NCBI GenBank assembly: GCA_043800705.1 | Contig: JAZDMS010000021.1 | Location: 1-64,000, forward strand | Direction of reading: 5' to 3' | DNA: 64,000 nucleotides | DNA from: Candidatus Altiarchaeota archaeon | GTDB taxonomy: Archaea > Altiarchaeota > Altiarchaeia > IMC4 > SCGC-AAA252-I15 | In this document: one piece after another, positions 6,468-57,527 of the stretch | How positions within the stretch are numbered: the first letter of the stretch is position 1 | Layout of the letters: the number at the start of each line of letters is the position of its first letter | Made by a program: the position numbers and the translations under genes | Notes under the pieces: generated by a model | Seen by the model: only the letters and a program-made list of their open reading frames with translations | Told to the model about the DNA's origin: nothing | The model's database searches: none

Positions 6468-6761
6468 CAAATGGATATGATAACTCCAGCCTAAAAGAAA
6501 CATCCAGTGTCCGGACCACAGCAACAAAGGCAGCCGCTTACAGACAGCACCAGCACCATCGCCAAAGAGGCTAGAACAAGCTTTCCCGTAGTAGTGATTA
6601 TTTTTAATAGAATAATAACGCGACGGCATACATACTTTGATAAAATAGGACTATGAGAGACTGACCCCGGGTCCCTTGGCACGATTGGAACTTAGCCCCT
6701 GCTTTTCGTGAATTTTTTAGGGTTTTGCTCACATGGTTTAAGTTAATGATCTTAGCGCGTA

Positions 6762-6971
6762 ATGTATTTCATGTCTGAGCAGAAGTTGACCAAATCCAAG
6801 ATTGCAATACTATTATCTTTGTTCGTTATGGTGGGGGCGGGTTTTGTTGGGATACTGCTCGCCTTTTTCGTAAATAAAACACTGGGGATAGTGGCGATAT
6901 TCTTTGGATTATTCCTCGGAGTCGTGGGGATAGCGGGGGGAGTGACACTCGATAAGGTCTGGAAGAAGTAG
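6762..6971 (+). CDS. small two-TM membrane protein
   Basis: 69 aa with two hydrophobic helices. Confidence 0.55.
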   Translation: MYFMSEQKLTKSKIAILLSLFVMVGAGFVGILLAFFVNKTLGIVAIFFGLFLGVVGIAGGVTLDKVWKK

Positions 6972-6984
6972 CTGCAGCATCAGA

Positions 6985-7006
6985 TGTTTAGTCCTCGTTA
7001 TCGGCA
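6985..7006 (+). repeat. possible highly degenerate att-like site
   Basis: TGTTTAGTCCTCGTTATCGGCA versus tRNA TGTTCAAGTCACGCCATCGGCA (15/22); lies between two convergent genes. Confidence 0.4.
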
Positions 7007-7012
7007 AACGTT

Positions 7013-7906
7013 TCATGCGAATTTGCTGTCGTCGCACTCGTATGCGCCGATGATTTTTCCGCCGCCCGCGACTATCCCCCAATAGAGTCTCGCCTGAGCC
7101 CAGCAGGAGGTTGTGGAAACCCTATTCCATCCCCCGACAACATAACCGACCGGGTTGTACCATGCCCGCTGCTCGTTTATCGTCTGGATCCTGTCGAGCT
7201 CCTCGTTGCATGCGTCGTCCATGAGGCTTTTGAATTCGTCGTCGCATGTTTTTTGGGGTGTGAACGTCTGCCCGCATTCTGCGTAGCATTTGTCGTGGCG
7301 GTAGCATGCGAAGTTGAAGCTCGCCTGCGATACCAGGTGTTTGTTGGGGCCGCTGAACTTCCCCTCCGGGCCGCAGTAGTTCTTGCTCGCGTTGTACGGT
7401 TCGAATGTGCCTGCGTCCTTCGGGGGTTTCTTCTTCGGGCCTATTCCCTTGGTGTCCAGGGGTTGTTCTTTGCCGCCGAATGTTCCGCTCACGACTACGC
7501 CGCGGGTGCCGGCGTTGTAGTTCCCGACTTCGTTTATTGTGAAGCCGCCTGACGTGGCGCCCGGCGGTATGTCGACTGAGACTGAGAAGTCTTTCGACCA
7601 GGGCGCGTTGCCCTCTGCGGAAAATGTCTTCTGGTTGTCGCCTGCTGACACGGAAACGGAGACTGAGCCGCTGTAGCCGTTGTTCGCCTTCACGCTACCT
7701 GCGACTGTCAGCTTACTTCCTGTCAGGGTCCCGTTGTGCCTTCTGGAGCAGGTGAAGCTATATGCGTCGACCGGCGCCTGAAGCGTGGCCCCGGATACCG
7801 TGTAGGATACCTGCAGACCGTTGAACGGGTCGGTGGGGAACGTCTCGGCGTAGACTATGCCGAGGAGAGCGTAGGTAAGAAGTAGGGTCGCCAATAATAT
7901 CTTCAT
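7013..7906 (-). CDS. secreted protein with a C-terminal phospholipase A2-like domain
   Basis: Signal peptide, beta-rich N-terminal domain, then NYCGP...FACYRHDKCY...CD, the His-Asp sPLA2 motif. Confidence 0.7.
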   Translation of the reverse strand: MKILLATLLLTYALLGIVYAETFPTDPFNGLQVSYTVSGATLQAPVDAYSFTCSRRHNGTLTGSKLTVAGSVKANNGYSGSVSVSVSAGDNQKTFSAEGNAPWSKDFSVSVDIPPGATSGGFTINEVGNYNAGTRGVVVSGTFGGKEQPLDTKGIGPKKKPPKDAGTFEPYNASKNYCGPEGKFSGPNKHLVSQASFNFACYRHDKCYAECGQTFTPQKTCDDEFKSLMDDACNEELDRIQTINEQRAWYNPVGYVVGGWNRVSTTSCWAQARLYWGIVAGGGKIIGAYECDDSKFA

Positions 7907-8056
7907 GATAAGTTTTAATAATGCACTGGGAGGATAAAAACGTCTGATTACAAGTCAGGTAAACCCATAAAAGCCAGCCTTATACGGACGGATAATCAGC
8001 GAGTCCTTAGTTGGGTGCAGGGCTTGTGTTTTTACCCTATATGTTGAATATAACAC

Positions 8057-8932
8057 ATGGTTTTTGGTTGGGCCTTGAGAGGTTTATTGGCTTTTGCAAT
8101 TGCTTTGTTGGTTTATCTGGTGGTCGCTTCAGTTGCGGCTCAGACGGGGGACGCTCATTGGGATGATTTTTTCAAGCATCCCCCCGGCTATTGGTCGCTT
8201 AAGGGGGTCTCACATAACCCGCAACCGCAGCCAAACAACGAGTATAGAACTAATACCTTCAAGTCGGAGAACGGCAAAATCGAGGGCACCTCGAAAGACC
8301 CTGGACACCGCATCGGGAACCAGCAACCAGGTTCTGCCTCAGCCACGCTGACTTGGACGCCACTTCCCAAGAGGATTGAGGATAATCAGAAGTTTGATAT
8401 CAACATATCAGTCGAAGGGAAGAAGGAAGGCGAGATACTCATCATAGACCGAAACACCATCAGGGGGGACGGTTCAGTCGCTGGGGCGTGCCAGAGCTTT
8501 CAGGACGCATCCCCCCTCAGTATCCCTCCATTCAGATGGAACGGCATGCCTGGCGAAAAGGTCACGAAGACCATCAAATTCCCATCTTTCGCGAAGATCT
8601 ACAGCTGCTACACCATAATAGACCGCACGTCCGACTCAGCGGACGCTATGAGAAAGGCTTCGCTGGTGGCTGGCAAGTACGAGTTCAACTATACGCTACA
8701 GACTGAACTCGACGAAGGCCAAGACAACTATACCTACACTTATGTTTGGGTGCCAACAGGGAAGGGCGGCGCAACAGCATTAGGGAAGGAGACGGGAGGC
8801 TCAGACGTGTCAGCATCAGGGAAGGAAACGGCAGACAAGTCAGATGGTAATAAGGTGTGCGGACTCATCCCCCTATTGACTCTTGTCACTGCGGGACTCA
8901 CAGCATTAGTGGGGAAGACAATAATGCCCTGA
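8057..8932 (+). CDS. secreted/surface protein with a C-terminal membrane anchor
   Basis: Signal peptide, G/S/K linker and terminal VCGLIPLLTLVTAGLTALVGK, resembling a CGP-CTERM sorting signal. Confidence 0.7.
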   Translation: MVFGWALRGLLAFAIALLVYLVVASVAAQTGDAHWDDFFKHPPGYWSLKGVSHNPQPQPNNEYRTNTFKSENGKIEGTSKDPGHRIGNQQPGSASATLTWTPLPKRIEDNQKFDINISVEGKKEGEILIIDRNTIRGDGSVAGACQSFQDASPLSIPPFRWNGMPGEKVTKTIKFPSFAKIYSCYTIIDRTSDSADAMRKASLVAGKYEFNYTLQTELDEGQDNYTYTYVWVPTGKGGATALGKETGGSDVSASGKETADKSDGNKVCGLIPLLTLVTAGLTALVGKTIMP

Positions 8933-9104
8933 TCGAGAGATAACCTACGAGAAGTTCTATGAGCACATTGACGGCCCGGGCTTGAGTGAGTACATCTACC
9001 AGAAATCGCCTAATCCCCAGAATCCGCATCTTTTCCTCTAAAAGTCGCCATTTGATGGTAGACAAGCCAAAATCCCAATAATCTTCCGATATATCGAATA
9101 TCCT

Positions 9105-9226
9105 AAAAGCATGCTTTTCCGAACAGATAGTTCGAGGCACGCCATCGGCAAGGGGCTGAAAAGGCATTATAATGCCTTTCCACAACCCATAAAGCGATTT
9201 TACGATTTTGTTTGTGACTTGAACAC
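9105..9226. repeat. att-like site 5 (palindrome, tRNA 3'-end copy, spacer and inverted arm)
   Basis: AAAAGCATGCTTTT, then CGAACAGATAGTTCGAGGCACGCCATCGGCA (to 9150), a spacer homologous to that of site 4, and GTGACTTGAACAC (9214-9226). Confidence 0.9.
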
Positions 9227-9240
9227 GCACGCCAATTAGG

Positions 9241-9759
9241 TCATTCCTGGGGGTATAGATTTTCCAGGACGTATTTCAAGTTGGCCTTGTAGTTTTCGTC
9301 GTTGCCGACATATTCTACTCTCTTGGCGCGGGATTTTATCATCTGCTTTGTCAGCTTATGCTTCTGTATGCAGGAGTGTATATCACTTATGTCTCTGTCA
9401 TTCAGGCGTCCAATCTTCGAGACCACAATATCCAAGGGGTGCAGGGCGTATAGTCGGATGTTCTTGAATCCATGCTTTATGGGAATCCTCATAGTCGTCC
9501 AATCAGCAGGGAGCTGTTGGCTGAAGACCATGCCGCCGTGGAATAGGTCGATTTTATACCCATGACTGATGCTCTCCAAGGTCTTCCTGAATCGCTCCAG
9601 GTGCTTGGTTTCGACGTCGAAGTCTATATCCATGGTCGAATCCTTCAGCCCAAGAAGCGTCATGGCAGTGCCCCCGACTGCTGTAAGCTCCACAGGTTCC
9701 TTAAGCTCTTTGTCCACTACAGCCAGGAATTCAATTAGTTTGTCAGCTTCAAGCGGCAT
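9241..9759 (-). CDS. DUF6036/AbiEii-like nucleotidyltransferase
   Basis: VGGTAM..LGLKDSTMDIDF motif and DIVVSKIGRLNDRDISD. Confidence 0.8.
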   Translation of the reverse strand: MPLEADKLIEFLAVVDKELKEPVELTAVGGTAMTLLGLKDSTMDIDFDVETKHLERFRKTLESISHGYKIDLFHGGMVFSQQLPADWTTMRIPIKHGFKNIRLYALHPLDIVVSKIGRLNDRDISDIHSCIQKHKLTKQMIKSRAKRVEYVGNDENYKANLKYVLENLYPQE

Positions 9760-10834
9760 CGTATTTCCTCAACGTTTCAAGAAGGTCTTGGGCTGATGTC
9801 CGGGTATCAATGCCCCACCTTCCTGAAGTCGTATTAGATTTCAATTGTGTGTAGAAGACATTGAATATGATAAGACCTTGACTTAAAGCGGTCTGTTTCT
9901 TATCGTCTTGAGTAAGCTCCTTGACGGAGTCTATGAGGTAGCCTAACATGCTGAGTTTATTGTGTTTCAATCCTAGATACAGGAGCAGACGAATGTTTAT
10001 TTTGTTCTTGCCTATCAAGACTGCTGCCGCCTCTGTGAGTCTCGCGTCGTCTTTCAAGAGGCATGCCATTATAGTGGTTTCAATATTCAGGTCTGCGGTC
10101 TTCTCTGACGATATTTTAGTGAAGGCTGTATAACCGAATCTCTCCAGATTCCAATAAAGCTCCTGTTCGCTGATTTTCCTGGGTTCAATTTCTTCGGCTG
10201 GCGATGTCGGCGGGGTTTGGGAGACAATCCTCCAGAAGCCGGACTGATTCTCCAAGACAACCTTGTCCGTTAGTATCTCCTTTGCTTGATTGTAGCCTTC
10301 GCTCTGAAGCATCGTCTTAAACTCCTCCTCGGTGAGAATCAAGGAGTAAACCTTTAGGTTGTTTTTCTTGGAAATCTCTTGAATACGTCTACAAAGCCCT
10401 TCAGCTGCTAAATCAGAGTCTATCAGGAATAAAATCTCGGCAGTGTTCAGTTTTGCGTTTTTCTCAGGCCGGATGATAGCGGTCGCCTTTAGGTTAATGT
10501 CTCGAATGGATTCTATGTCTCTGAGCAGCTGCTCCTCGCCCTTGTTCTTCTCAAGGAACTCCTTTTTCCCCCTCAGCTCCATGGATGCAAGTTCGTCAAT
10601 CGTCCCTGGGTTGGTCAACCTCAGATAAAGCAGCGAAGTCATGCCGGTCTTCTCAATCTTTATGATTCCCTCATCTTTGAGCTTCTGGCATTTGTCGTAT
10701 ATGTTCTTGTAGTATGCCGTATACCCTAACTCCCGTATGCGCCTAACTAACTCGCTTATGGACTGCCCCCTGTCAAGCCTTCTGGAAAGGGCATACAACA
10801 CCCTATAAGTTGTAGAATCCATGTTATTTCCCAT
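9749..10834 (-). CDS. wHTH-containing protein with a degenerate NTase-like middle domain, partner of the DUF6036 gene
   Basis: N-terminal SISELVRRI..YYKNIYDKCQKLKDEGIIKIEK wHTH; overlaps the start of the NTase gene. Confidence 0.65.
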   Translation of the reverse strand: MGNNMDSTTYRVLYALSRRLDRGQSISELVRRIRELGYTAYYKNIYDKCQKLKDEGIIKIEKTGMTSLLYLRLTNPGTIDELASMELRGKKEFLEKNKGEEQLLRDIESIRDINLKATAIIRPEKNAKLNTAEILFLIDSDLAAEGLCRRIQEISKKNNLKVYSLILTEEEFKTMLQSEGYNQAKEILTDKVVLENQSGFWRIVSQTPPTSPAEEIEPRKISEQELYWNLERFGYTAFTKISSEKTADLNIETTIMACLLKDDARLTEAAAVLIGKNKINIRLLLYLGLKHNKLSMLGYLIDSVKELTQDDKKQTALSQGLIIFNVFYTQLKSNTTSGRWGIDTRTSAQDLLETLRKYDAA

Positions 10835-11172
10835 AGATAGTATTATTACTATAACATTATAGTTTAAATACTATAACTTCTCCCGTAGGGCTAATAGGCT
10901 ATCCCTTGTTTGTTTCATCCAACAGTAATTATATGGATCCCTCTTTGTTTGTCTCTGAAAATGTTAGCGACAGGGAGGGACAAATGAGCCAACTCACGAG
11001 AAAAAGGTTTGTCTTCTGGAGGATTGCGTAAGGATATAAAAGTACAATGGAGAAGGATCAACACGGCTCAACTTCCCTAAAATTTTATTTATTACGATAA
11101 GATACTATCTGATTACAGGAAAGCGCACGGGATCTTACGCGAATAGTGGTTTAGTATAACGCATATCCTGTT

Positions 11173-11186
11173 GCCCGCCATCGACA
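11173..11186 (+). repeat. distal degenerate att-like remnant
   Basis: GCCCGCCATCGACA versus GCCCGCCATCGGCA of sites 2 and 3; lies near the shift to GC-rich backbone. Confidence 0.55.
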
Positions 11187-11299
11187 AATTTTGTGTTGTT
11201 CAGACGCAGTATCCGTTGTGGCATGTTTCGTAGCCGTTGCAGCTGAGGTCGCTAACGCATTCATCCCCTTTTGGCTCGTGGTTTATGAAATTTTCTGCT

Positions 11300-44890: not shown

Positions 44891-45880
44891 TTAGCATATC
44901 CGTGGCACTATCCGTCCCGTCGGCCATGGCATTATCCTCCTGCCCAGCATCGTGTCGACCACGACCTTGTCTCCTTTCGTTATCTGGCCGATTATGGCCG
45001 CGTCGGGATTGTATCTTTTTAGCCTTTTTTCGACGGTTTTTGCGTTCTTCCTTGCCGCTATCGCTATGAATCTTCCCTCGGATGCGAGCTCGTAGAGGTC
45101 TATTCCGAGCATCTCAGTCACCGTCCTGGCCTCCTTCTTGGCGGGGATCGTTTCCTCCTCGAGAAGCATACCGACCCCGTATTTTCCGCATATCTCGTTG
45201 AGGACGGACGCCATGCCGCCGCGGGTCGGGTCCTTCGCCAGCTTGAGGAGGCCTTTGACGGCTGCAATCTCATCCAGGAGGGGTTTGGAGTCGGTGACTA
45301 TGCCGGTCTCGTAGTCGAACCGCTTCGACAACAGGGCGACGGCGTGTTCTCCGAGGCCTCCGGACAGGATGATCCTGTCGCCGGATACCGGCTTCTTCGT
45401 CAGAAGCTCGCCCTTGCCCGCGATGCCGACTGCGGAGGAGTTGATTATCATCTTGTCGAGCTTCCCGCGGTCCATCACCTTCGTGTCCCCGGTGGCTATC
45501 GGGACGCCTGTCTCGGCGGAGATCCTGCCGATGGACTCCACTATCCGTCTCAGGTCCTTCTTCGGGAAACCCTCCTCTATGACGAAGCCGAGGGAGAGGC
45601 CGAGCGGCCTTCCTCCCATGACTGCGATGTCGTTTATGGTGCCGCATGCCGCGAGCTGGCCTATGTCGCCGCCTGGGAAGAACAGGGGGTCGATGACGAA
45701 CGAGTCCGTGGTGAACAGGAGGGCCCGGCCGTCTCTAAGGTCGAATGTCGACGAGTCGCAATCGACGTTCCTCCATCGTCCCCGGCTGCCGAATCCGTAG
45801 GATGCTATCAGCTTCGACATCTCCATTCCGCCCGAGCCTTCCGATAGGCTGACTATTTCCTCGTCCATTTCATTTTCCAA
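44891..45880 (-). CDS. hypE: hydrogenase maturation protein HypE
   Basis: TTDSFVIDPLFFPGGDIG, DPTRGG and C-terminal PRIC. Confidence 0.97.
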   Translation of the reverse strand: MENEMDEEIVSLSEGSGGMEMSKLIASYGFGSRGRWRNVDCDSSTFDLRDGRALLFTTDSFVIDPLFFPGGDIGQLAACGTINDIAVMGGRPLGLSLGFVIEEGFPKKDLRRIVESIGRISAETGVPIATGDTKVMDRGKLDKMIINSSAVGIAGKGELLTKKPVSGDRIILSGGLGEHAVALLSKRFDYETGIVTDSKPLLDEIAAVKGLLKLAKDPTRGGMASVLNEICGKYGVGMLLEEETIPAKKEARTVTEMLGIDLYELASEGRFIAIAARKNAKTVEKRLKRYNPDAAIIGQITKGDKVVVDTMLGRRIMPWPTGRIVPRIC

Positions 45881-46907
45881 AGCGGTAGTATATGGCGCAG
45901 CTTCCCTCCTCTGAAACCATGCAAGCGCCTTTAGGATGCTCCGGGCTGCAAGCCCTCCGGTAGAGCGGGCACCCGGTCGGCTGTATGAGGCCTTTCAGGA
46001 TTTCGCCGCAGCGGCAGCCGGTCTTCTTCGGGGCCGGGACCCTGTCCAGGAGCGCCTTGTGGACGGCCTTCGCATCCAATGAGCCGTCCCTGACCTCGAG
46101 GCCCGACTTTGGAATCGTCCCCAGGCCCCTCCACTCGCAGTCTGAATGCGTGAAATGCCGCTCAAGGAGCCTCCGGGCCTTTCTGTTGCCTTCTTCCTTC
46201 ACCGCCTCCGGGTATCCGTTGACGACGATGTCTCTGCCGTCCCGGATGAGTTCGAGAAGTAGCATTATCCCGCGCAGGATCCGCTCCGGCGTGAACCCTG
46301 ATATGACCTGAGGGACTTTTATGCGCCGGTACGGCTTTACCCCGATGATCGTCGACACGTGGCCCGGGTCGATGAAACCGTCCACCCTGACCTCCCCCGC
46401 CATTAGGGCCTCAAGGGCTGGGGGGACGAGCCTGTGGGAGGAGTATACAGAGACGCCGTTTTCCAGAAGGTATGCCGTCATGGGCGCCGTCGTCTCGAAG
46501 CCTATCCCGAAAAAGGCGGTATCTGGGTGTGCCTTCTTCAGTGTGACGGCCTCCGTCGCCGAGTAGACCTCGAAGACCCTGCCGCCCCGGGCCCTTGCCT
46601 GTTCGAGGCTGTGCCTGGACCCCGGGACCCGCATCATGTCGCCGTATGTCGCGACCGGTATTCCGCACATCGCCAGCTCTATCACGCAGTCTATGTCCCT
46701 TTGGGGGGTGACGCATACGGGGCAGCCCGGGCCTGAGATGAGCCTCACGTTCTTCGGGAGGATGTCGCGGATGCCATACCGCATTATGACGTTGGTGTGG
46801 CCGCCGCATATCTCCATGATGGTGATGTCGGCTCCGATATCAGCGGCGGTCTCGCCTATCCTTCGGAGGTGGGTGTCGATGGCCTTCCGTTCATCCATCG
46901 TTGGCAT
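45870..46907 (-). CDS. hypD: hydrogenase maturation protein HypD
   Basis: MEICGGHT, GPGCPVC, GFETTAP, PGHVS and GACMVSEEGSC. Confidence 0.97.
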   Translation of the reverse strand: MPTMDERKAIDTHLRRIGETAADIGADITIMEICGGHTNVIMRYGIRDILPKNVRLISGPGCPVCVTPQRDIDCVIELAMCGIPVATYGDMMRVPGSRHSLEQARARGGRVFEVYSATEAVTLKKAHPDTAFFGIGFETTAPMTAYLLENGVSVYSSHRLVPPALEALMAGEVRVDGFIDPGHVSTIIGVKPYRRIKVPQVISGFTPERILRGIMLLLELIRDGRDIVVNGYPEAVKEEGNRKARRLLERHFTHSDCEWRGLGTIPKSGLEVRDGSLDAKAVHKALLDRVPAPKKTGCRCGEILKGLIQPTGCPLYRRACSPEHPKGACMVSEEGSCAIYYRFGK

Positions 46908-47133
46908 CCTCCGCCCTCGCGAGTTCGGCGTATTCCCTGATGAGGCTGAGCGACTCTTCCGCATCCTTTGGGGCGAGCTTCTCGATGGCGAACCCCGCGT
47001 GGACGAGGACGTAGTCCCCCCTCTTGGGGGAGTCTATCATCGAGACGTTCGTCTTCTTCCGGAGGCCGCCGTAGTCGACAGTCGCGATTTCGCCCGTTAG
47101 TCCGATTATCTTCGCAGGTATCGCGTAGCACAT
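46891..47133 (-). CDS. hypC: hydrogenase chaperone HypC
   Basis: MCYAIPAKI..GDYVLVHAGFAI. Confidence 0.96.
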   Translation of the reverse strand: MCYAIPAKIIGLTGEIATVDYGGLRKKTNVSMIDSPKRGDYVLVHAGFAIEKLAPKDAEESLSLIREYAELARAEDANDG

Positions 47134-51989: not shown

Positions 51990-52078
51990 AGAAACCGCCT
52001 CCAATAGAAGTAAGGCTTTAAAATTATTGTAGAAACTATATGGCATCATGCCTATATAAATGAACCGGTATTCCGCGA

Positions 52079-52146
52079 CTTTGCTCCTAAATACTGTTTT
52101 GCTCCTTTTTATTTGGGGTTGCTCCTTTTTAACGAAAACTGCTCCT
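52079..52146 (+). repeat. left end: four TGCTCCT motifs
   Basis: At 52082, 52100, 52120 and 52140 (spacing 18/20/20). Confidence 0.92.
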
Positions 52147-52149
52147 TTA

Positions 52150-52758
52150 CTATTGGTTTGAACGGTCTATATCATCTATTTTATCGTTTTTTGTGATTAT
52201 GGTCATTTTTCTTTCGCTGAGATTTATTGAGGATAACATAGGCTCATATAACTCAAAAAATTTCTCAAGGTCAAACCATTGGTCATCTAGTCCTTGAATA
52301 ATCTTTCCATTTCTACAAGAGAGTATTCCTTCTGCAAAGGGGCCCCAATTAGTATATCTCCACCACATTGCCCCTCTCTTTAGAGTTGATTCATAAGGAA
52401 AATTAGGTCGTGCAAAAATTGTATGATATAAGCCAGTACATTGCCCTATGCGTTCATAAAATCTAGGCAGTGCGTAATAAATTATTCCATTAAATTTATT
52501 TTGAAGAAGGTTATGCTGTTCTTTATCTAACTCCCAATAGATAGTCCTGCCATTACACTTGGCAGCCTTGAATTGTAAACCAAAAATTTTGTTACCAACT
52601 CTAAAAAGTTCATCTGCTGGGAACCTGGATTCTTGTTTAGGGCTTAGGCTTATCCATTCAACAGCAAAACCCCGCCTTCTAAAATATTCTTCGATACAGG
52701 GTACGATTCGTATTGTATACTCCCTTTCTATGAGTCGGGGATATGTTATTTTAATCAC
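52150..52758 (-). CDS. PD-(D/E)xK-like nuclease
   Basis: E..FPADELFRVGNKIFGLQFKA resembles a PD..QxK restriction-endonuclease-like site. Confidence 0.55.
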   Translation of the reverse strand: MIKITYPRLIEREYTIRIVPCIEEYFRRRGFAVEWISLSPKQESRFPADELFRVGNKIFGLQFKAAKCNGRTIYWELDKEQHNLLQNKFNGIIYYALPRFYERIGQCTGLYHTIFARPNFPYESTLKRGAMWWRYTNWGPFAEGILSCRNGKIIQGLDDQWFDLEKFFELYEPMLSSINLSERKMTIITKNDKIDDIDRSNQ

Positions 52759-52772
52759 CCATTTTGTAGTGC

Positions 52773-53945
52773 CTAACTTACTAATATCTCGTGAACATCC
52801 GTCATAATTTTTTTAACTTCCGGTTTTGTATGTTCTTTTGCTTCGACATATGGAAGATATGTTTTTTTAGTGTCTGAATTAACAATCTTTTTTGAGAGTT
52901 CCTTTAGTTCATAATAGAAGGTGTGCATCTTATGAACCTTAAGTCCAGGTAACACATGTTGGGGAGTATAAATCTCTTCTAGTGAATACTTTTTACATGT
53001 CGGACAAGTACAATGGGGGTCTTTTTTTATTATCTCATTTTTTCTGTATGCTCCATAGTCGTCTGTTAGCATATACCTACATTTTTCTGGTACTAGTGGT
53101 CCTCCCCCCCAAATTACGTTTGATATTGTGTCTATCCCATACGCATGGACAAGAACATCGGTAGCTGGTGATATGCCTTTCGTGGATTTCCTATTTGTGG
53201 CGACATTGAAAGCATGTAGGTAATATTTTTCGTTTTTTTCGCTATTACCTTTAATTTTCAACGAATTGCGGATAGTACGGATAACTGCTCTTAAGAGGGC
53301 AGAAGGATAAGATGAACCACTAAAATCTACTCCGAATATCCTACATTCCTTGTCCTGCCTCAAATATTCTTTTACTATATCTGCCGCCAAGCTCACATCA
53401 TCTAAACGAGGGATATATGCCATCATTGGCTTTTCGTAATTAAACGTTTGGATTTCGTTTATAGTTCGTTCAATTACCTTTCCCACTATCTTTCTACTAC
53501 TTACCCCGCCGGGTATGGGCGTAACCACTATATCCGTGCCAGTTTCAAGTTCGGCTCCAACGATACTAGACGCTTGTAAATCAGTTATCGTGTGATGCGG
53601 ATAGATTACTCCATCGACATCGTAAGTATTTGGTATTCTCGGATACACTATGTTTATGGTTTTTCTAGGGTTGAGTAGCCTAGCAGAAAGCCTATTTTGT
53701 AAATCGGTTATAGCTGATGCGGACGTCCCAATCTGGCTAAAGGTATCATACCCTAGATTTTCACCTGCAATATTGATGGTCGAATCAGGGTACTCATAGC
53801 CAGCTATCTTAGCGTATATCTCAGCATCCCTGCTGGTTATCCCATGAATAGGCCCAATGGCCTTTTTACCGTTAATCTCAAGACTTAAGCTCCTAGCAAG
53901 GCTTACACTGTCTTGTCCTATCACTTCTAATTCAAAAGAGGTCAT
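52773..53945 (-). CDS. divergent tRNA-guanine transglycosylase (TGT)-fold protein
   Basis: N-terminal FELEVIGQD..LARSLSLEINGK, YYLHAF, YGIDT and zinc site CTCPTC..H; canonical catalytic motifs not evident. Confidence 0.6.
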   Translation of the reverse strand: MTSFELEVIGQDSVSLARSLSLEINGKKAIGPIHGITSRDAEIYAKIAGYEYPDSTINIAGENLGYDTFSQIGTSASAITDLQNRLSARLLNPRKTINIVYPRIPNTYDVDGVIYPHHTITDLQASSIVGAELETGTDIVVTPIPGGVSSRKIVGKVIERTINEIQTFNYEKPMMAYIPRLDDVSLAADIVKEYLRQDKECRIFGVDFSGSSYPSALLRAVIRTIRNSLKIKGNSEKNEKYYLHAFNVATNRKSTKGISPATDVLVHAYGIDTISNVIWGGGPLVPEKCRYMLTDDYGAYRKNEIIKKDPHCTCPTCKKYSLEEIYTPQHVLPGLKVHKMHTFYYELKELSKKIVNSDTKKTYLPYVEAKEHTKPEVKKIMTDVHEILVS

Positions 53946-53976
53946 AGATAGTATATAGTTGCTTGGATTTAAAAGG

Positions 53977-54132
53977 TTATCGGTTGGTTACACCATTTTG
54001 TTTCCTAAGTTCATGTAGAATTGCCGTCTCAACAAATTTGCCTATTGTAAGGTCTAAATCTATCGATTTCTTCTTTGCTTCCTTCCATACCTCTTTGTCT
54101 AGCCTTAGACTAACTGTAGTTCTTTCTGTCAT
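53977..54132 (-). CDS. ribbon-helix-helix regulator (51 aa; absent from the ORF track)
   Basis: MTERTTVSLRLDKEVWKEAKKKSIDLDLTIGKFVETAILHEL; preceded by TGTAA(T) repeats. Confidence 0.8.
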   Translation of the reverse strand: MTERTTVSLRLDKEVWKEAKKKSIDLDLTIGKFVETAILHELRKQNGVTNR

Positions 54133-54227
54133 ATTTATCACATTATATTATGTAATATTGCATTCAAATATTTAAATAAAAGTGTAAACAATAATGTAAT
54201 AATGTAATAATTTTAACCCTAGTTACC

Positions 54228-55433
54228 TTAATATGCCGTAAATGTTGGATTTACCCCTAATTCATGCATTTCCTGTATCAGTACGCAGATATTGTGGCAG
54301 ATGAACTTGCATAGTAGCTCGTTCACCTGCGCCTTGTATTTCTTCGATTTCAGTTTGTCGCCGAACTTCGCCTTAACCATATTCATCGTGGATTCTACGT
54401 TGCTTCTTTGGTGGTAGTGCTGTAGGAACTCCTCTCGGTTCAGTTGAAAGTAGTGGTACATTCTCGTCCACGTTAATGAACCTCTGCTTTTACCGGTGTC
54501 ATTTTTCTTGAACGGCAGGTAAGCAGTCGCCCCTATCTTGTTCGCCAAGTTGTAGTTATCTCTGCTCGTGTATGCTTTATCGGCAGTTATCTCCTTGATT
54601 TCAAAACCGCCCTCGTAAGCTTCTGTTATCAATGGAGCGAACTGCGGGCAGTCTGCTCCGTTCTCTGGCGTGATTTTTGCGGAGGCTATCACGTTGGTTT
54701 TCGTGCCGACAAGAACGTGCGCCTTAACCCAATGATGCTGTCGTCTCGTATTGTGTTTCTCGACGCAGTATTGGTTGAATTGTGTGCTTCGGAATCCTGT
54801 GCTGTCAGGCCCGAATGTCGTCTCGACGCTTTTCAACGGCAGGGCAGATACCGTAAGGAGCTTGTGCAGTATCGGCGTTATGTCCTCCCTCGGCAGGAAC
54901 TTGTTGATTGCGTTGAAGTTCGGAGTCTTGCTAACCTGCTCCCTCTCCTGGGCGTTCCGGTATAGTGTGTGCGCTCTCCTGCTCGACAGACCTGAGTAGA
55001 CCTTCTGGATAGAGCAGAACAAATCATCTCTCAGGCTTATCGGCTTGCGCCCTACAAGGTTAGGGTCACGCTGTGGCTCGTCCACGTTGTCCACTAAGTC
55101 CCGCAGGAGCTTGTCGAAAAATGTTATCTCCTGCGTCTGTGCCTTGTTATAAGCCGTCCAGTCCTGTTTGTATGTGACTTTCTTGGTTTCAGTCACGGTG
55201 GTTGTTCCGTTCTTTTCAACGGTCTTGCTGATGGTGTGCATCACTGCGTAGCTGTGCTTGCAGGTCACACCCCTAGTCTGGCAGTCTGGGCAGTCGCATA
55301 CGTAGCGTCCTTCTTTGCGCTGGACGAAGTATGCGCCGCTCCCGCCTTGTGCTGGCACTATCCACCCATGCTTTGTCTGTTCTAAGCCGCCTTTTTCAGC
55401 GATTTGTATTCCTCTCATTTCCCGTGCATCCAT
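54228..55433 (-). CDS. DDE transposase (IS4/IS5-superfamily-like) with an N-terminal SWIM zinc finger
   Basis: CDCPD..CKH SWIM motif; DSTGF, ADKAY and YHQRSNVES(..)K DDE motifs. Confidence 0.92.
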   Translation of the reverse strand: MDAREMRGIQIAEKGGLEQTKHGWIVPAQGGSGAYFVQRKEGRYVCDCPDCQTRGVTCKHSYAVMHTISKTVEKNGTTTVTETKKVTYKQDWTAYNKAQTQEITFFDKLLRDLVDNVDEPQRDPNLVGRKPISLRDDLFCSIQKVYSGLSSRRAHTLYRNAQEREQVSKTPNFNAINKFLPREDITPILHKLLTVSALPLKSVETTFGPDSTGFRSTQFNQYCVEKHNTRRQHHWVKAHVLVGTKTNVIASAKITPENGADCPQFAPLITEAYEGGFEIKEITADKAYTSRDNYNLANKIGATAYLPFKKNDTGKSRGSLTWTRMYHYFQLNREEFLQHYHQRSNVESTMNMVKAKFGDKLKSKKYKAQVNELLCKFICHNICVLIQEMHELGVNPTFTAY

Positions 55434-55446
55434 TTACATCACCTAC

Positions 55447-55541
55447 TATATACCTATATAGTATATTACTCCATAGGTATATAAATACTTATCGGTGATG
55501 GGATATGTTTATTGGAGTATATACTTGGTATTTATATACCT
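55447..55541. promoter_or_regulatory. divergent promoter region with TATATACCT repeats
   Basis: 11-bp IR TATATACCTAT (55447-55457) / ATAGGTATATA (55473-55483); a further TATATACCT at 55533. Confidence 0.55.
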
Positions 55542-55566
55542 GAAAATAATATACTACCTGATAAAG

Positions 55567-55731
55567 ATGGCGTCGAAGGTTGAAATCAAAGTTATGGGCT
55601 ATCATTGCGAACGATGCGGATACGAATGGGTGCCAAGGAACGATAAAGTCTCTCCGAGAGTGTGCCCAAAATGTAAAAGCCCCTACTGGGACAAACCGAG
55701 GAAAAAACAAGCTCAAGGAGGAATAAGTTAA
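55567..55731 (+). CDS. small CxxC..CPxC zinc-ribbon protein
   Basis: CERCGYEWVPR..PRVCPKCKSPYWDKPR. Confidence 0.85.
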   Translation: MASKVEIKVMGYHCERCGYEWVPRNDKVSPRVCPKCKSPYWDKPRKKQAQGGIS

Positions 55732-55807
55732 ATATTTTTCTATCGCTCTCTTTGTACACCTATTTAAGCTAAGCTAGTTTAGATAGTAATTGCATGATGA
55801 AGTAGAT

Positions 55808-56398
55808 ATGGCAACTGAGGTTAGGGATTATTTCATCTTAGATGTAGAGACTAGTCCTATTGATTTTGAAGCATATGATACTCTCTCTGAAGAGGAAAAA
55901 TTAAAAAAGCTGAATCCAATTGATTCAAGGATAGTAGCAATTGGTATTCGGTATCGTGGTGTAGACACTATATTTTCTCAGGAGGATGAAAAAGAATTAT
56001 TAGATGAATTTTGGTTACATTGGAAAACAATAATTAAAGGTGGTAATCTAATCAAAGTTGTTGGATTCAATATAAATAATTTTGATTTACCATTCATTAT
56101 TACTAGAAGTTATTTCCATGGAGTCGAAATATCCCCTTTTGTATTGAAAGATTTTATTATTGACATACGAGATAAAATTTCCGCTTATAGATACGGTCCT
56201 TGTAGAGGTACCTTAAAAGATTTTGGGCCTTGTGCAGGAGCAACAGTAATGGATATTGATGGAAGTGCTGTTCCTAAGCTCTACCATGAGGGCAAGACTG
56301 AGGAAATAATTAAATATCTAAAAAATGACTTACTAATGACAGATAAGGTTTTTCAGAGAATACGTGATACCAAAATAGTTTATATTGATAGGTGGTAA
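55808..56398 (+). CDS. DEDD 3'-5' exonuclease (PolB-exo/RNase H-like, stand-alone)
   Basis: LDVET, GFNINNFDLPFI and YLKND (ExoI/II/III motifs). Confidence 0.85.
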   Translation: MATEVRDYFILDVETSPIDFEAYDTLSEEEKLKKLNPIDSRIVAIGIRYRGVDTIFSQEDEKELLDEFWLHWKTIIKGGNLIKVVGFNINNFDLPFIITRSYFHGVEISPFVLKDFIIDIRDKISAYRYGPCRGTLKDFGPCAGATVMDIDGSAVPKLYHEGKTEEIIKYLKNDLLMTDKVFQRIRDTKIVYIDRW

Positions 56399-56401
56399 CT
56401 T

Positions 56402-56968
56402 ATGGATAAACTTCCCGCATCCAAAAAAGTAGAGGACGATGCTAATGACTCTGAAAATAAGTACGCTACAGTAAGCCTACAAGTCAACAATAAGCTGAAA
56501 GAAGCTATATTCTACATCGTCTCAAAATGCAATGAAAAACCAAGTTTTGGAAGAGTAAACTTATGGAAACTATTGTATTTCTCAGATTTTAATTTCTATA
56601 AGAAGCACTATGTCTCGATAACGGGGGAAGAATATAGAAAGTTGGACCTGGGCCCAGGACCAGTTCATTTTGATACTACTATAAATGCCCTTACCTCTGA
56701 AGGGTTTATTGAAGAAAAGAAGCGGGGAGGAGCAAAATATGACCCTTATGTGTATACTATAAAAAAAGATATGAAGATTACCCATCTGGCCCCACAAGAA
56801 TTAAGGCAAATTGACAACGTTATTCATAAGTTAGGTGATTGTTCAGCTACTAAAATTAGCGAAATATCTCATAAGGATACCCCGTGGAAAGTTACTGACG
56901 ATAAAGAGATAATAGATTATGACCTCGTTTTTTATAGGCATGACGCGGTTGCGGCTCAAGTAGAATAA
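56402..56968 (+). CDS. Panacea/SocA (DUF4065) antitoxin
   Basis: LWKLLYFSDF..SITGEEY.KLDLGPGP..ISEISHKDTPW. Confidence 0.88.
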   Translation: MDKLPASKKVEDDANDSENKYATVSLQVNNKLKEAIFYIVSKCNEKPSFGRVNLWKLLYFSDFNFYKKHYVSITGEEYRKLDLGPGPVHFDTTINALTSEGFIEEKKRGGAKYDPYVYTIKKDMKITHLAPQELRQIDNVIHKLGDCSATKISEISHKDTPWKVTDDKEIIDYDLVFYRHDAVAAQVE

Positions 56969-56969
56969 A

Positions 56970-57353
56970 ATGGACTCCGATTATGTGGAGGAATTTTATC
57001 CCCCCTTCAATAGTCATTTTAAAGCGTGCTTAAAAAACTTTAGACATACGTTTGAGGAAGATTTTGGGCGGCTTAGAAAAGTTGTTTTAATTGAAAGGGA
57101 ATCTGCAAGCTGCACTGATAAAATCGCTAATCTAGGTAGTGAGGTATCGTTACCAGTATATAAAATCCATATGCACGTTAAACAAGCAAGTGGAAAAATT
57201 GGCCGTGTTATATTCATACTAGACAAACCACAAAAAAGGATAGTGTACGTTGATATTTACACAAAAAACAAACAATCAAACCACGATTCTAAGTGGATAA
57301 GAGAAGCATATACGTGGTATGTGGAATATATTAGTAAAGTACCTCCTTATTAA
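56970..57353 (+). CDS. RelE-like toxin
   Basis: PVYKIHM..GRVIF..IVYVDIYTKNKQSNHD; starts 1 nt after the antitoxin gene. Confidence 0.6.
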   Translation: MDSDYVEEFYPPFNSHFKACLKNFRHTFEEDFGRLRKVVLIERESASCTDKIANLGSEVSLPVYKIHMHVKQASGKIGRVIFILDKPQKRIVYVDIYTKNKQSNHDSKWIREAYTWYVEYISKVPPY

Positions 57354-57386
57354 CAATACATCAGGACCAGGACCATGAGCTACATT

Positions 57387-57467
57387 TGCTCCTTTTTACC
57401 CCCGGCTGCTCCTAAATGGTTTTAGATGCTCCTTTATGCTGCTCCTATTTGAAGTTAAGGAGCAAAG
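57387..57467 (+). repeat. right end: four TGCTCCT motifs plus one inverted terminal copy
   Basis: At 57387, 57407, 57427 and 57440; AGGAGCAAAG at 57458-57467. Confidence 0.92.
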
Positions 57468-57527
57468 CCGGTATTCCGCCGGTTGCCGTGGTTCTCCCTT
57501 TTTTATCGGGCAATCCAAGTATATTTG

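Follow-up and report, generated by a model that had tools for sequence, protein, structure and literature searches.

In the analysed window, which is the whole stretch of 64,000 nucleotides, the divergent spacer between psmB and corA is occupied by an AT-rich element of 5,393 bp (positions 52077-57469) that is present as a single copy in the 87.6%-complete MAG. The element contains eight ORFs and its features, including the duplications next to it, are arranged as follows.

52067-52076, no strand: left copy of the target-site duplication, GGTATTCCGC (sequence repeat)
52077-52088, plus strand: terminal inverted repeat of the L-type end, GACTTTGCTCCT; position 2 is A, mostly G in the family
52082-52146, plus strand: L-type end array, TGCTCCT at +6, +24, +44 and +64 from the tip, all oriented as the terminal copy
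52150-52758, minus strand: cargo ORF of 202 aa, no family match
52773-53945, minus strand: cargo protein of 390 aa with a tRNA-guanine-transglycosylase (TGT) fold in the predicted structure (pLDDT 92.5)
53977-54141, minus strand: small ribbon-helix-helix/Arc-like regulator of 54 aa (phrog_3180, E 1.9e-4; YlcI_YnfO_N, E 7e-4)
54228-55433, minus strand: transposase of 401 aa with N-terminal SWIM finger and DDE_Tnp_1 core (Pfam, motif residues)
55567-55731, plus strand: zinc-ribbon protein of 54 aa (CPxCKSPxW type), encoded divergently to the transposase; accessory gene that recurs in the transposon family
55790-56398, plus strand: PolB-exonuclease-like 3'-5' exonuclease, cargo, 202 aa from TTG (DNA_pol_B_exo2, E 5e-12)
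56402-56968, plus strand: SocA/Panacea-domain antitoxin-like cargo protein of 188 aa (E 8e-17)
56970-57353, plus strand: cargo ORF of 127 aa, putative toxin partner by its position directly after the Panacea gene
57387-57464, both strands: R-type end array, terminal copy at +6 (minus strand) and copies at +24, +37, +57 and +77 inverted relative to it
57458-57469, minus strand: terminal inverted repeat of the R-type end, GGCTTTGCTCCT, an inverted match to the left tip
57470-57479, no strand: right copy of the target-site duplication (sequence repeat)

Both junctions are marked by the direct repeat CCGGTATTCCGC, found at 52065 and 57468 with 0.01 copies expected, which agrees with the preliminary description of an insertion between psmB and corA. 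A third copy at 46655 lies inside a gene and is unrelated to the element. The repeat reads as 12 bp since it consists of the 10-bp target duplication plus the last 2 bp of the right end, and the 12-bp target duplication claimed earlier thus has to be shortened to 10 bp. Likewise, the terminal repeat, formerly given as 10 bp with an offset of 2 nt (GA), is actually a 12-bp inverted repeat with one mismatch (11/12 matching; 2 matches versus 0.01 expected) and no offset. Position 2 of the left tip is A, while G is found there in 97% of 37 aligned ends, and judging from this base the window copy may be impaired. The GC content of the insert is ~0.30-0.44 compared to 0.56-0.62 in the flanks, with ~0.50-0.54 in the transposase gene. 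In the related genomes G001 and G016, psmB and corA are adjacent and lack end arrays; the nearest relatives share only ~78% psmB identity and have a diverged spacer, so that the exact unoccupied target is not recoverable.

At the left end, TGCTCCT occurs on the plus strand at 52082, 52100, 52120 and 52140 (spacings 18, 20 and 20), and at the right end at 57387, 57407, 57427 and 57440 (spacings 20, 20 and 13), followed by the terminal copy on the minus strand at 57458. These positions agree with an arrangement of mostly 20-bp spacing and equal orientation at both ends in which only the outermost right copy is inverted. The count of four copies per end, however, is correct for the left end only, as the right one has five (four direct and one inverted). 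Altogether 28 copies of TGCTCCT are present in the window versus 7.99 expected (sd 3.07), a number reached in 0 of 100 shuffles, and nine of them fall in the two end regions.

The only transposase gene is located centrally, flanked by other genes, and has no visible inverted repeats of its own, as previously noted. Its product matches the Pfam family DDE_Tnp_1 with 70.9 bits (cut-off 23) and displays the catalytic triad D210, D285 and E347, with E347 placed within a Y-x2-R-x3-E-x6-K motif, as well as the SWIM finger ligands C46, C48, C58 and H60. These four ligands, D210, D285 and Y340-R343-E347-K354 are invariant in 27 aligned sequences, and the window transposase is intact and carries every family-invariant residue. 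The SWIM score (PF04434) of the window protein is 16.9 bits and thus below the Pfam cut-off of 19.6, which is exceeded by bacterial members (26.4, 23.1 and 22.9 bits); PF04434 is carried by 63-73% of members in Atlas clusters, and the CxC..CxH motif is found in 107 of 111 relatives. The best NCBIfam IS5 model, NF033579, yields 127.9 bits, below its cut-off of 140, and covers aa 138-382 only. For the ~200-aa N-terminal region including the SWIM finger, no match was obtained in at least 5,000 plasmid hits.

Among the cargo, the model of the 390-aa protein gave a structural match to 1j2b_A (E 2.2e-10, TMq 0.57) and its sequence a weak match at the Zn site (E 0.058); based on the predicted fold, it is possibly a nucleic-acid base-exchange enzyme. 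The exonuclease ORF has an alternative ATG at 55808. The Panacea gene and the 127-aa ORF constitute a putative toxin-antitoxin pair, the toxin being assigned by position only. Such phage-like small genes (Arc-like repressor, exonuclease, toxin-antitoxin pair), combined with the low GC content and the direct repeat at both junctions, might also be expected from an integrative element of the integrase type or from the remnant of a plasmid or virus, in which the 12-bp direct repeat would represent the attachment site. This is extremely improbable, as no ORF matched an integrase or recombinase family, terminal inverted repeats are present and a tRNA target is absent; effectively, it is refuted by the flanking repeats of related copies, which differ in sequence at every locus, as target duplications do.

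These related copies come from 116 loci, among which 54 distinct elements have both ends (L137 being a duplicate of L136 and L125 nearly identical to L081). The tips of all 54 conform to [GA][GAC]CTTTG, the target duplication amounts to 9 bp in 44 elements and 10 bp in the other 10, and element length ranges from 2,680 to 8,377 bp (median 4,340, n=54). No compact IS form was encountered in this close family, every one of the 54 bounded copies carrying extra genes; cargo varies between copies and, across the family, consists mostly of DNA methyltransferases and restriction genes. Phased repeats, target duplications and variable cargo, for which the preliminary description proposed to test homologous SWIM-DDE loci, have all been found.

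The two ends follow a fixed design whatever the 7-mer used. L-type ends display copies at +6, +24 and +44 in one orientation, and R-type ends one at +6 followed by inverted copies at +37 and +57. The earlier view of a cargo-carrying single-transposase transposon with asymmetric multi-site ends is thereby supported, the full L/R design being present in 32 of the 54 bounded elements and a partial one, of the same sense, in 12 more. The L-type end lies upstream and the R-type end downstream of the transposase in 27 elements, and the order is reversed in five, including the window element; L/L or R/R combinations were encountered in none of the 54. When subterminal sites were compared with the terminal site of the same element (37 elements), positions 6-11 agreed in 85-100% and positions 1-5 in 3-49%. 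Within an element the site sequence is uniform, but it drifts among close relatives; on a quick transposase tree, the 7-mer class clusters only weakly (24 changes versus a shuffled mean of 28.2, with 3 of 200 shuffles as low as 24). Within the phylum, the L-end pattern was detected in 7 of 61 genomes at 8 places (reversed-pattern control: 0), and family members with the same end design occur in both archaea and bacteria.

Two properties of the transposase module deserve separate consideration. Its GC content of ~0.51 compares to ~0.36 in the rest of the insert and is ~14 GC points above that of the cargo. With respect to the L and R ends, the module is also inverted compared to G009, L022, L023 and most of the remaining relatives. 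Both would be accounted for if the TGCTCCT-ended unit were a non-autonomous cargo cassette into which the transposase and zinc-ribbon genes had landed as a separate IS. However, the module is surrounded by neither inverted repeats nor duplications and has no conserved non-coding ends of its own, and its similarity to the G009 copy ends where the two coding regions end. Moreover, GGCTTTG tips are the only ends in the 54 bounded relatives and are shared by the distant relative IS903B; of 104 loci, only 3 show a heptamer resembling the tip in the 450 bp upstream of the transposase, and at L115, the sole locus where both sides have tips, the inner site is without arrays. A separate IS is therefore unlikely by a wide margin, and the GC-rich, inverted module hints at an internal rearrangement. 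Overall, positions 52077-57469 are best explained as a DNA transposon that is autonomous, carries cargo ('transporter IS' or unit transposon) and has inserted between psmB and corA of an Altiarchaeota-type genome with a 10-bp target duplication (probability about 0.85).

In the mechanism proposed for this transposon, the transposase would read a site of ~11 bp (here TGCTCCT plus an A/T-rich tail) via its N-terminal part, with the SWIM finger as the obvious candidate, although the zinc-ribbon protein could be the repeat binder instead. In each terminal repeat the site would occupy positions 6-16, and it would recur at fixed subterminal positions, namely at +24/+44 in the same orientation at one end and at +37/+57 inverted at the other. 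Cleavage would involve the outer pentamer, GGCTT or GACTT, which is confined to the tips. Several protomers bound approximately two helical turns apart could then form an asymmetric synaptic complex in which the ends are distinguished, a staggered cut of 9-10 bp in the target would give rise to the duplication, and the DNA between the two ~80-bp end arrays would travel along, whatever its content.

As the subterminal copies of the window element point in the same direction at both ends, a circular form had also been suggested, in which eight direct repeats around a palindromic junction would yield an iteron-like or transpososome array for replication or promoter formation. Some IS families use circle junctions; the IS903 group, to which the catalytic core is related, is not known to form circles. 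The element contains no replication gene and no junction sequence was found. The only end-to-end fusions found are short copies in three related archaeal genomes (G014, G019 and G026), which display the normal L...R order and flanking target duplications and are thus MITE-like deletion derivatives. A circular form is therefore very improbable.

No published description of this transposon family was found in print. It is apparently undescribed and widespread, and it carries genes for restriction-modification and other defence-type functions across the boundary between bacteria and archaea. A broader claim would be that, with the window element, an undescribed family of IS903-related transporter transposons spanning both domains has been recognised for the first time, its SWIM-finger transposase assembling on fixed asymmetric 3+3 sites (+6/+24/+44 versus +6/inverted +37/+57), that the family is a dedicated vehicle for restriction-modification and other defence genes, and that archaea (Altiarchaeota, DPANN lineages) here yield their first clear case of DDE transposons having both cargo and MITEs of their own; with all parts taken jointly, we regard this as roughly an even bet. 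According to a 2019 Thaumarchaeota survey (PMC6563490), no transposons with passenger genes had been detected in archaea; the present family shows that cargo-bearing DDE transposons and their MITEs occur there. Since its cargo is mostly methyltransferase and restriction genes, the family represents a recognisable route for restriction-modification and toxin-antitoxin genes between distant prokaryotes, small-genome archaea included. The combination of rigid end design and drifting site sequence makes it a natural system for left/right discrimination by a simple DDE enzyme, and likewise for studying the co-evolution of protein and site specificity. Practical use is also possible, as a single transposase of ~400 aa would move 3-8 kb of arbitrary DNA between ends of ~80 bp.

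Several known systems resemble the element in part. Transposon-like restriction-modification units with inverted repeats and a short target duplication relative to an empty site were described by Furuta, Abe and Kobayashi (2010, PMC2853133); in the passages considered, these show 8-bp duplications and have no transposase of their own, and the terms 'IS5' and 'IS903' are absent from that paper. DDE transposases with a CxCxnCxH SWIM finger are also known from eukaryotic Mutator/MULE elements, some of which possess subterminal repeats as well, and from IS256-related prokaryotic relatives. In contrast to these, the window transposase has a DDE_Tnp_1 catalytic domain and an N-terminal finger, with DDE_Tnp_1 and SWIM as its only Pfam matches; the likeness is resemblance, not kinship. 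Tn7 and phage Mu ends similarly carry several binding-site-like repeats, unequal between left and right and about two helical turns apart, and the cargo of Tn7-like elements is rich in defence genes (PMC8649781), as in the window family. Nevertheless, neither an rve-type transposase nor TnsA, TnsC or a MuB-like ATPase was detected in any ORF by Pfam and NCBIfam, the duplication measures 9-10 bp instead of 5 bp, one end has subterminal sites that run opposite to its own terminal site, and a Foldseek comparison with TnsB gave the shared RNase-H core only (TMq 0.19).

A similar organisation is shown by the transporter IS (tIS) of ISfinder/TnCentral, which likewise combine one transposase, terminal inverted repeats, a target duplication and passenger genes. 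In a 2021 resource paper, tIS are restricted to IS1595 and IS66, whereas the window lineage is related to IS5/IS903, to which it extends the tIS concept. With IS903B (IS5 family, IS903 group) the element shares the DDE_Tnp_1 core with aligned D, D and Y-x2-R-x3-E motif (BLASTP: 28% identity over 177 aa, E 1e-14). IS903B has the terminal heptamer GGCTTTG and a 9-bp target repeat (PMC10569121), compared to GG at one tip, GA at the other and a 10-bp duplication in the window element. The GGCTTTG tips of IS903B were confirmed on a plasmid copy. IS903B itself is an IS of 1,057 bp encoding one 322-aa protein, without copies at +24/+44 or +37/+57, whereas the window element comprises 5,393 bp, a 401-aa transposase extended N-terminally by ~200 aa, cargo, asymmetric ends with several sites and a zinc-ribbon partner. 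More generally, members of the IS903 group are expected to be compact (~1 kb, transposase only, simple inverted repeats of ~18 bp), while the smallest relative found here has 2,680 bp. In IS903 ends, the outer part serves catalysis and the inner part binding, a division which would match the split between positions 1-5 and 6-11 seen in the family. On sequence comparison, the window element is distantly but specifically related to IS903B. Contrary to the preliminary description, which set it apart from IS4/IS5 elements, the element is linked to the IS903 group (IS5 family) by its catalytic core, its GGCTTTG tip and the 9-bp duplication typical of its relatives, and what had been called an undescribed class is better regarded as a variant, a cargo-carrying 'transporter IS' lineage tied to that group.

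The cargo-carrying insertion between psmB and corA is, with a probability of roughly 0.85, an autonomous member of an IS903-related transposon family with asymmetric multi-site ends. Its limits lie at 52077-57469, giving a size of 5,393 bp, and its ends are built from the following sequences.

Terminal sequences of the window element
52067-52076 and 57470-57479, target duplication of 10 bp
52077-52088, plus strand, left copy of the 12-bp terminal inverted repeat, GACTTTGCTCCT (one mismatch to the right copy)
57458-57469, minus strand, right copy of the terminal inverted repeat, GGCTTTGCTCCT
52082, 52100, 52120 and 52140, plus strand, TGCTCCT copies of the left-end array
57387, 57407, 57427 and 57440, plus strand, TGCTCCT copies of the right-end array
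57458, minus strand, inverted TGCTCCT copy of the right end

The 12-mer CCGGTATTCCGC occurs at both insert junctions, 52065 and 57468 (0.01 expected), and a target duplication of 12 bp had been claimed in the preliminary description. Since the terminal repeat starts at 52077 and ends at 57469, however, the duplication measures 10 bp. Likewise, the proposed 10-bp terminal repeat offset by GA is in fact a 12-bp repeat, the GA being its first two bases with one mismatch. Four TGCTCCT copies had been counted per end, which is correct for the left end, whereas the right end carries five, one of them inverted. In the whole window the heptamer is found 28 times compared to 7.99 expected, a number reached in none of 100 shuffles. 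A third exact copy of CCGGTATTCCGC is located at 46655-46666 within a 364-aa ORF (45870-46964, minus strand), again at about 0.01 expected per window; no end motifs are present near it, and it is probably there by chance.

Among 41 related genomes searched at the DNA level, G001, which belongs to the same genus, and G016 have psmB and corA side by side. The spacers of these two genomes lack TGCTCCT, and CCGGTATTCCGC as well as shorter cores of it are absent from the spacers of G001, G016, G003 and G006. BLAST alignment of the spacer with relatives ends just short of the repeat; the spacer has diverged beyond base-for-base alignment. A spacer this diverged demonstrates no more than that relatives lack element and arrays, and not the expected single repeat copy. 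The spacer is variable in content too, holding an AbrB-like 70-aa and PIN-like 125-aa pair, as judged by eye, in G003 (L017, C52:6700-8100), and ORFs of 282 aa and 185 aa, the latter membrane-like by eye, in G006 (L018, C3:29300-31700). The window target itself resembles the centre of a small palindrome, with 6-bp inverted arms at 52063-52068 and 57479-57484 around the duplicated bases, and insertions at L076, L092, L098, L124 and L078/L081 likewise lie midway in evident palindromes. As a general target rule among family insertions the palindrome was not borne out; family targets follow a weak trend, C-rich on the left and G-rich on the right.

Between its ends, and flanked by the proteasome subunit gene psmB and by corA, the element carries eight genes.

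Genes of the window element
52150-52758, minus strand, 202-aa ORF, matching no family
52773-53945, minus strand, 390-aa protein with tRNA-guanine transglycosylase (TGT) fold, by structure comparison
between the 390-aa gene and the transposase gene, minus strand, 54-aa Arc/RHH-like protein
54228-55433, minus strand, 401-aa transposase (DDE_Tnp_1 70.9 bits; SWIM 16.9, under the threshold of 19.6)
55567-55731, plus strand, 54-aa zinc ribbon, divergent from the transposase
after the zinc ribbon, plus strand, PolB-exonuclease-like 3'-5' exonuclease
after the exonuclease, plus strand, SocA/Panacea-domain protein
after the SocA/Panacea gene, plus strand, 127-aa ORF

PADLOC gave no match for the seven cargo or accessory proteins of the element. 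The 390-aa protein has a predicted fold with pLDDT 92.5, for which tRNA-guanine transglycosylases were retrieved (best 1j2b_A, E 2.2e-10, TMq 0.57, followed by many TGT chains), and by sequence it matches TGT weakly, over the zinc site. It has 27 homologues, every one without a name. Two of these lie on contigs (11,269 and 36,237) which, judging by equal sizes, apparently also bear transposase homologues, and this hints that the TGT-fold gene and the family transposase are repeatedly carried together. The protein and its 202-aa neighbour may form a base-exchange (nucleic-acid modification) module travelling with the transposon family.

In base composition the insert (GC 0.30-0.44) differs from the genome (0.56-0.62), with the transposase gene conspicuous at about 0.51. 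Transposase and zinc ribbon together (54228-55731) reach 0.51 compared to 0.36 for the rest of 52077-57469, and at locus L022 the transposase segment (10000-11200, 0.41) is again about 14 points richer than the cargo (6500-10000, 0.27). Such a gap could result from cargo turnover from AT-rich donors or from coding constraints.

A second full element is present in G009, and its transposase shares 73% of the DNA and 79% of the protein sequence with that of the window. The zinc-ribbon gene and the end motifs of the window element are present, the 12-bp repeat is perfect, and the duplicated target is 9 bp of a sequence unlike the window's. Its cargo is unlike as well, an HNH nuclease and a C-5 DNA methylase being accompanied by unknown ORFs. 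In G014, an L end is fused to an R end (types described below) over about 125 bp with a 10-bp repeat on either side, the right part being 93% identical to the right end of the window element. This fusion is a MITE. The suggested circle with an iteron-like junction found no support. Altogether, the end pattern was detected at 8 places in 7 of the 61 genomes of the phylum, the reversed-pattern control giving 0; five of these places were new and are those listed next.

Short derivatives in related archaea
G026, MITE-like copy of about 65 bp
G019, MITE-like copy of about 80 bp
G050, MITE-like copy of about 105 bp, right tip placed by eye
G056, contig C4, non-autonomous copy of about 870 bp
G056, contig C6, end adjoining a 55-aa transposase fragment

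More copies are located on two Aenigmatarchaeota contigs, one with a type I/IIG-like methyltransferase and a specificity subunit as cargo. Tandem or abutting insertions were seen at three loci: in L042 (G019:C40, about 700-830) the MITE of about 80 bp is immediately followed by another end with a different heptamer, TGCTATT; in L044 (G056:C6, about 900-940) a TAGCAAAG-type end stands ahead of the L end; and in L115 (about 3100-3140) a new GGCTTTGCCCAA end directly follows the right duplication. The window's own genome additionally holds a second, distant DDE transposase relative (L002, G000:C41:24996-25640), 27% identical to the window transposase over aa 174-387 and with one in-frame TAG.

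A word-indexed protein collection yielded 2,128 transposase relatives at E <= 0.001, the best 120 of which are at least 55% identical and about 400 aa long, with 'transposase' as their fullest name. A metagenome scan gave at least 599 matching stretches, 588 of those confirmed, and species genomes contributed 11 loci, including Planctomycetota, an actinomycete and a Chloroflexi-type MAG. Among the bacterial members is a Tundrisphaera copy, L028. Another 32 loci (L125-L156) lie on viral-labelled contigs of IMG/VR, several of them longer than 100 kb. Leaving out partial matches (L031, L147, L151-L156), the census comprised 116 loci: 10 from genomes, 80 from metagenomes, 25 viral-labelled and the window. 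Of these, 55 could be delimited on both sides, which removal of one duplicate reduces to 54. All 54 bounded elements have tips starting [GA][GAC]CTTTG; they measure 2,680-8,377 bp (median 4,340), and 44 of them have duplicated 9 bp of target, the other 10 having duplicated 10 bp. Cargo in every element grades into little cargo among the smallest (about 2.7-2.8 kb), in which the transposase is accompanied by one or two short ORFs of unknown kind and, in many cases, by the zinc-ribbon gene.

No compact form of the family was found, a tip-like heptamer occurring within 450 bp upstream of the transposase in 3 of 104 loci. The sole locus with such a heptamer on both sides, L115, was considered as a compact IS and rejected, the heptamer being an inner site without arrays. 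A nested IS, with the transposase module as a separate insertion in the window element, was likewise discarded, as neither a repeat search nor alignment with the G009 copy gave ends of its own. Some bacterial copies have transposase ORFs of 552-686 aa, which suggested an additional domain at the N-terminus; this part had no Pfam match, and in L073, L078 and L098 the zinc-ribbon gene lies on the opposite strand inside the 'extension'. These ORFs are treated as over-extended calls.

The ends share one design, in which the repeated motif corresponds to positions 6-12 of an element's own terminal repeat (TGCACAA, TGCCCAA, TGCTCCT, TGCAACG and others). At an L-type end, it recurs at +24 and +44 from the tip in the orientation of the terminal copy; at an R-type end, it recurs inverted at +37 and +57, one subgroup having +37 inverted and +55 direct. 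The window element exceeds this canonical set by additional sites at +64 (L end) and at +24 and +77 (R end). In half of the bounded elements (27/54) the L-type end lies on the upstream side of the transposase and the R-type end on its downstream side, and 5, including the window's, show the opposite arrangement; the design is partial in the same sense in 12, one end is recognisable in 5 and neither in 5, and L/L or R/R elements are absent from the 54. Alignment of 37 elements revealed that subterminal positions 6-11 agree with the element's own terminal site in 85-100% and positions 12-15 in 43-88%, whereas positions 1-5 (GGCTT) do so at a chance-like 3-49%. GGCTT is near-invariant in the family and confined to the tips. 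Each end thus consists of a tip-specific part and a repeated part of about 11 bp, the latter uniform inside one element but different even between close relatives. Heptamer classes cluster weakly on a quick tree of 49 transposases (L029, L088, L112 and L142 dropped for stops or shortness, L125 and L137 as duplicates). The proposal of a cargo transposon that has one transposase and phased, asymmetric ends was right and holds family-wide, the bounded elements displaying target duplications and differing cargo and most of them phased repeats.

Cargo was surveyed in 52 elements with 137 crude longest-ORF calls (120 aa or longer), leaving out the window, L125, L137 and ORF clusters 0 and 1. Such calls include spurious antisense ORFs at GC-rich loci (cluster 1). 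Most of the 137 had no match. The matches comprised N6_Mtase (15), N6_N4_Mtase (7), UPF0020 methyltransferase (4) and C-5 methylase (2), next to Eco57I (9), HSDR_N_2 (4), Methylase_S (3), HTH_3 (3) and single matches to RE_BstXI, RE_XamI, Vsr, HipA_C, SocA_Panacea, Imm_superinfect, NYN and others; one BLAST cluster including N6 methyltransferases extends over 13 elements. In at least 15 of the 54 bounded elements the conserved gene for the zinc ribbon (CPxCKSPxW) is found on the strand opposite to the transposase, about 200-260 bp upstream of it; a sixteenth (L140) has the motif on the transposase strand, some 3 kb downstream. Overall it occurs in at least 30 of 116 loci, these counts being lower bounds because the G009 variant is missed by the pattern. 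Its product may act in regulation or as an architectural factor.

In the model of the window transposase (pLDDT 78.9), the four zinc ligands sit in a small N-terminal beta-plus-helix module (residues 24-69); a disordered linker (75-90) and a helical part follow, ahead of an RNase-H-like core. All 27 sequences compared retain the SWIM ligands C46, C48, C58 and H60, the CxC..CxH motif is present in 107 of 111 loci, and bacterial family members pass the Pfam SWIM threshold. The 30 nearest clusters of a protein atlas include 17 that have the DDE_Tnp_1 plus SWIM set in common, one cluster being auto-named 'IS5 family transposase family protein'. With moderate confidence, the N-terminal region of the transposase, and in it above all the SWIM finger, would bind the repeated part of the ends, while cleavage and strand transfer would take place at the GGCTT tip, with a staggered cut of 9-10 bp in the target. 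As the extra sites occupy fixed, unequal places about two helical turns apart, several protomers probably assemble into a synaptic complex that is asymmetric like those of Tn7 or Mu, here from one small DDE protein. Relative to the ends, 5 of 32 fully typed elements have the transposase gene in flipped orientation, and cargo can lie on one or both sides, which shows that nothing beyond the end arrays is required in cis.

In the literature searched, neither an IS5/IS903-type SWIM transposase nor such ends nor a cargo link is described, and named members may sit in ISfinder, subscription papers or supplements. Krupovic and colleagues (2019; PMC6563490) gave passenger-gene transposons as undetected in archaea, and a 2026 survey of archaeal IS lacks the words passenger, IS903 and SWIM. 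Structurally, the best matches by coverage are Tn5 transposase (1muh_A, 3ecp_A; TMq 0.38-0.39) and piggyBac (0.35); a PDB sequence search with the family profile returned none at E <= 0.1. A tblastn search against 72,556 plasmids hit at least 5,000 records; among the matches listed, none covers 80% of the window transposase and most, named 'IS5-like element IS903B family transposase', align over residues 210-375 with an identity of about 27%. According to PMC10569121, IS903B belongs to the IS5 family, its ends start with GGCTTTG and it has a 9-bp direct repeat. The premise that the element is unrelated to IS5 fails on this common tip and 9-bp duplication and on the BLASTP match to one IS903B-type transposase (28% over 177 aa, E 1e-14), in which the DDE and Y-R-E motifs are aligned. 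At the same time, an IS903B plasmid copy of 1,057 bp has the GGCTTTG tips of the family but no copies at +24/+44 or +37/+57. Of the undescribed class initially envisaged, the absence of a published description stands, but not the categorical novelty: the finding is a transporter transposon related to IS903, distinguished by a SWIM domain and by multi-site ends of asymmetric layout.
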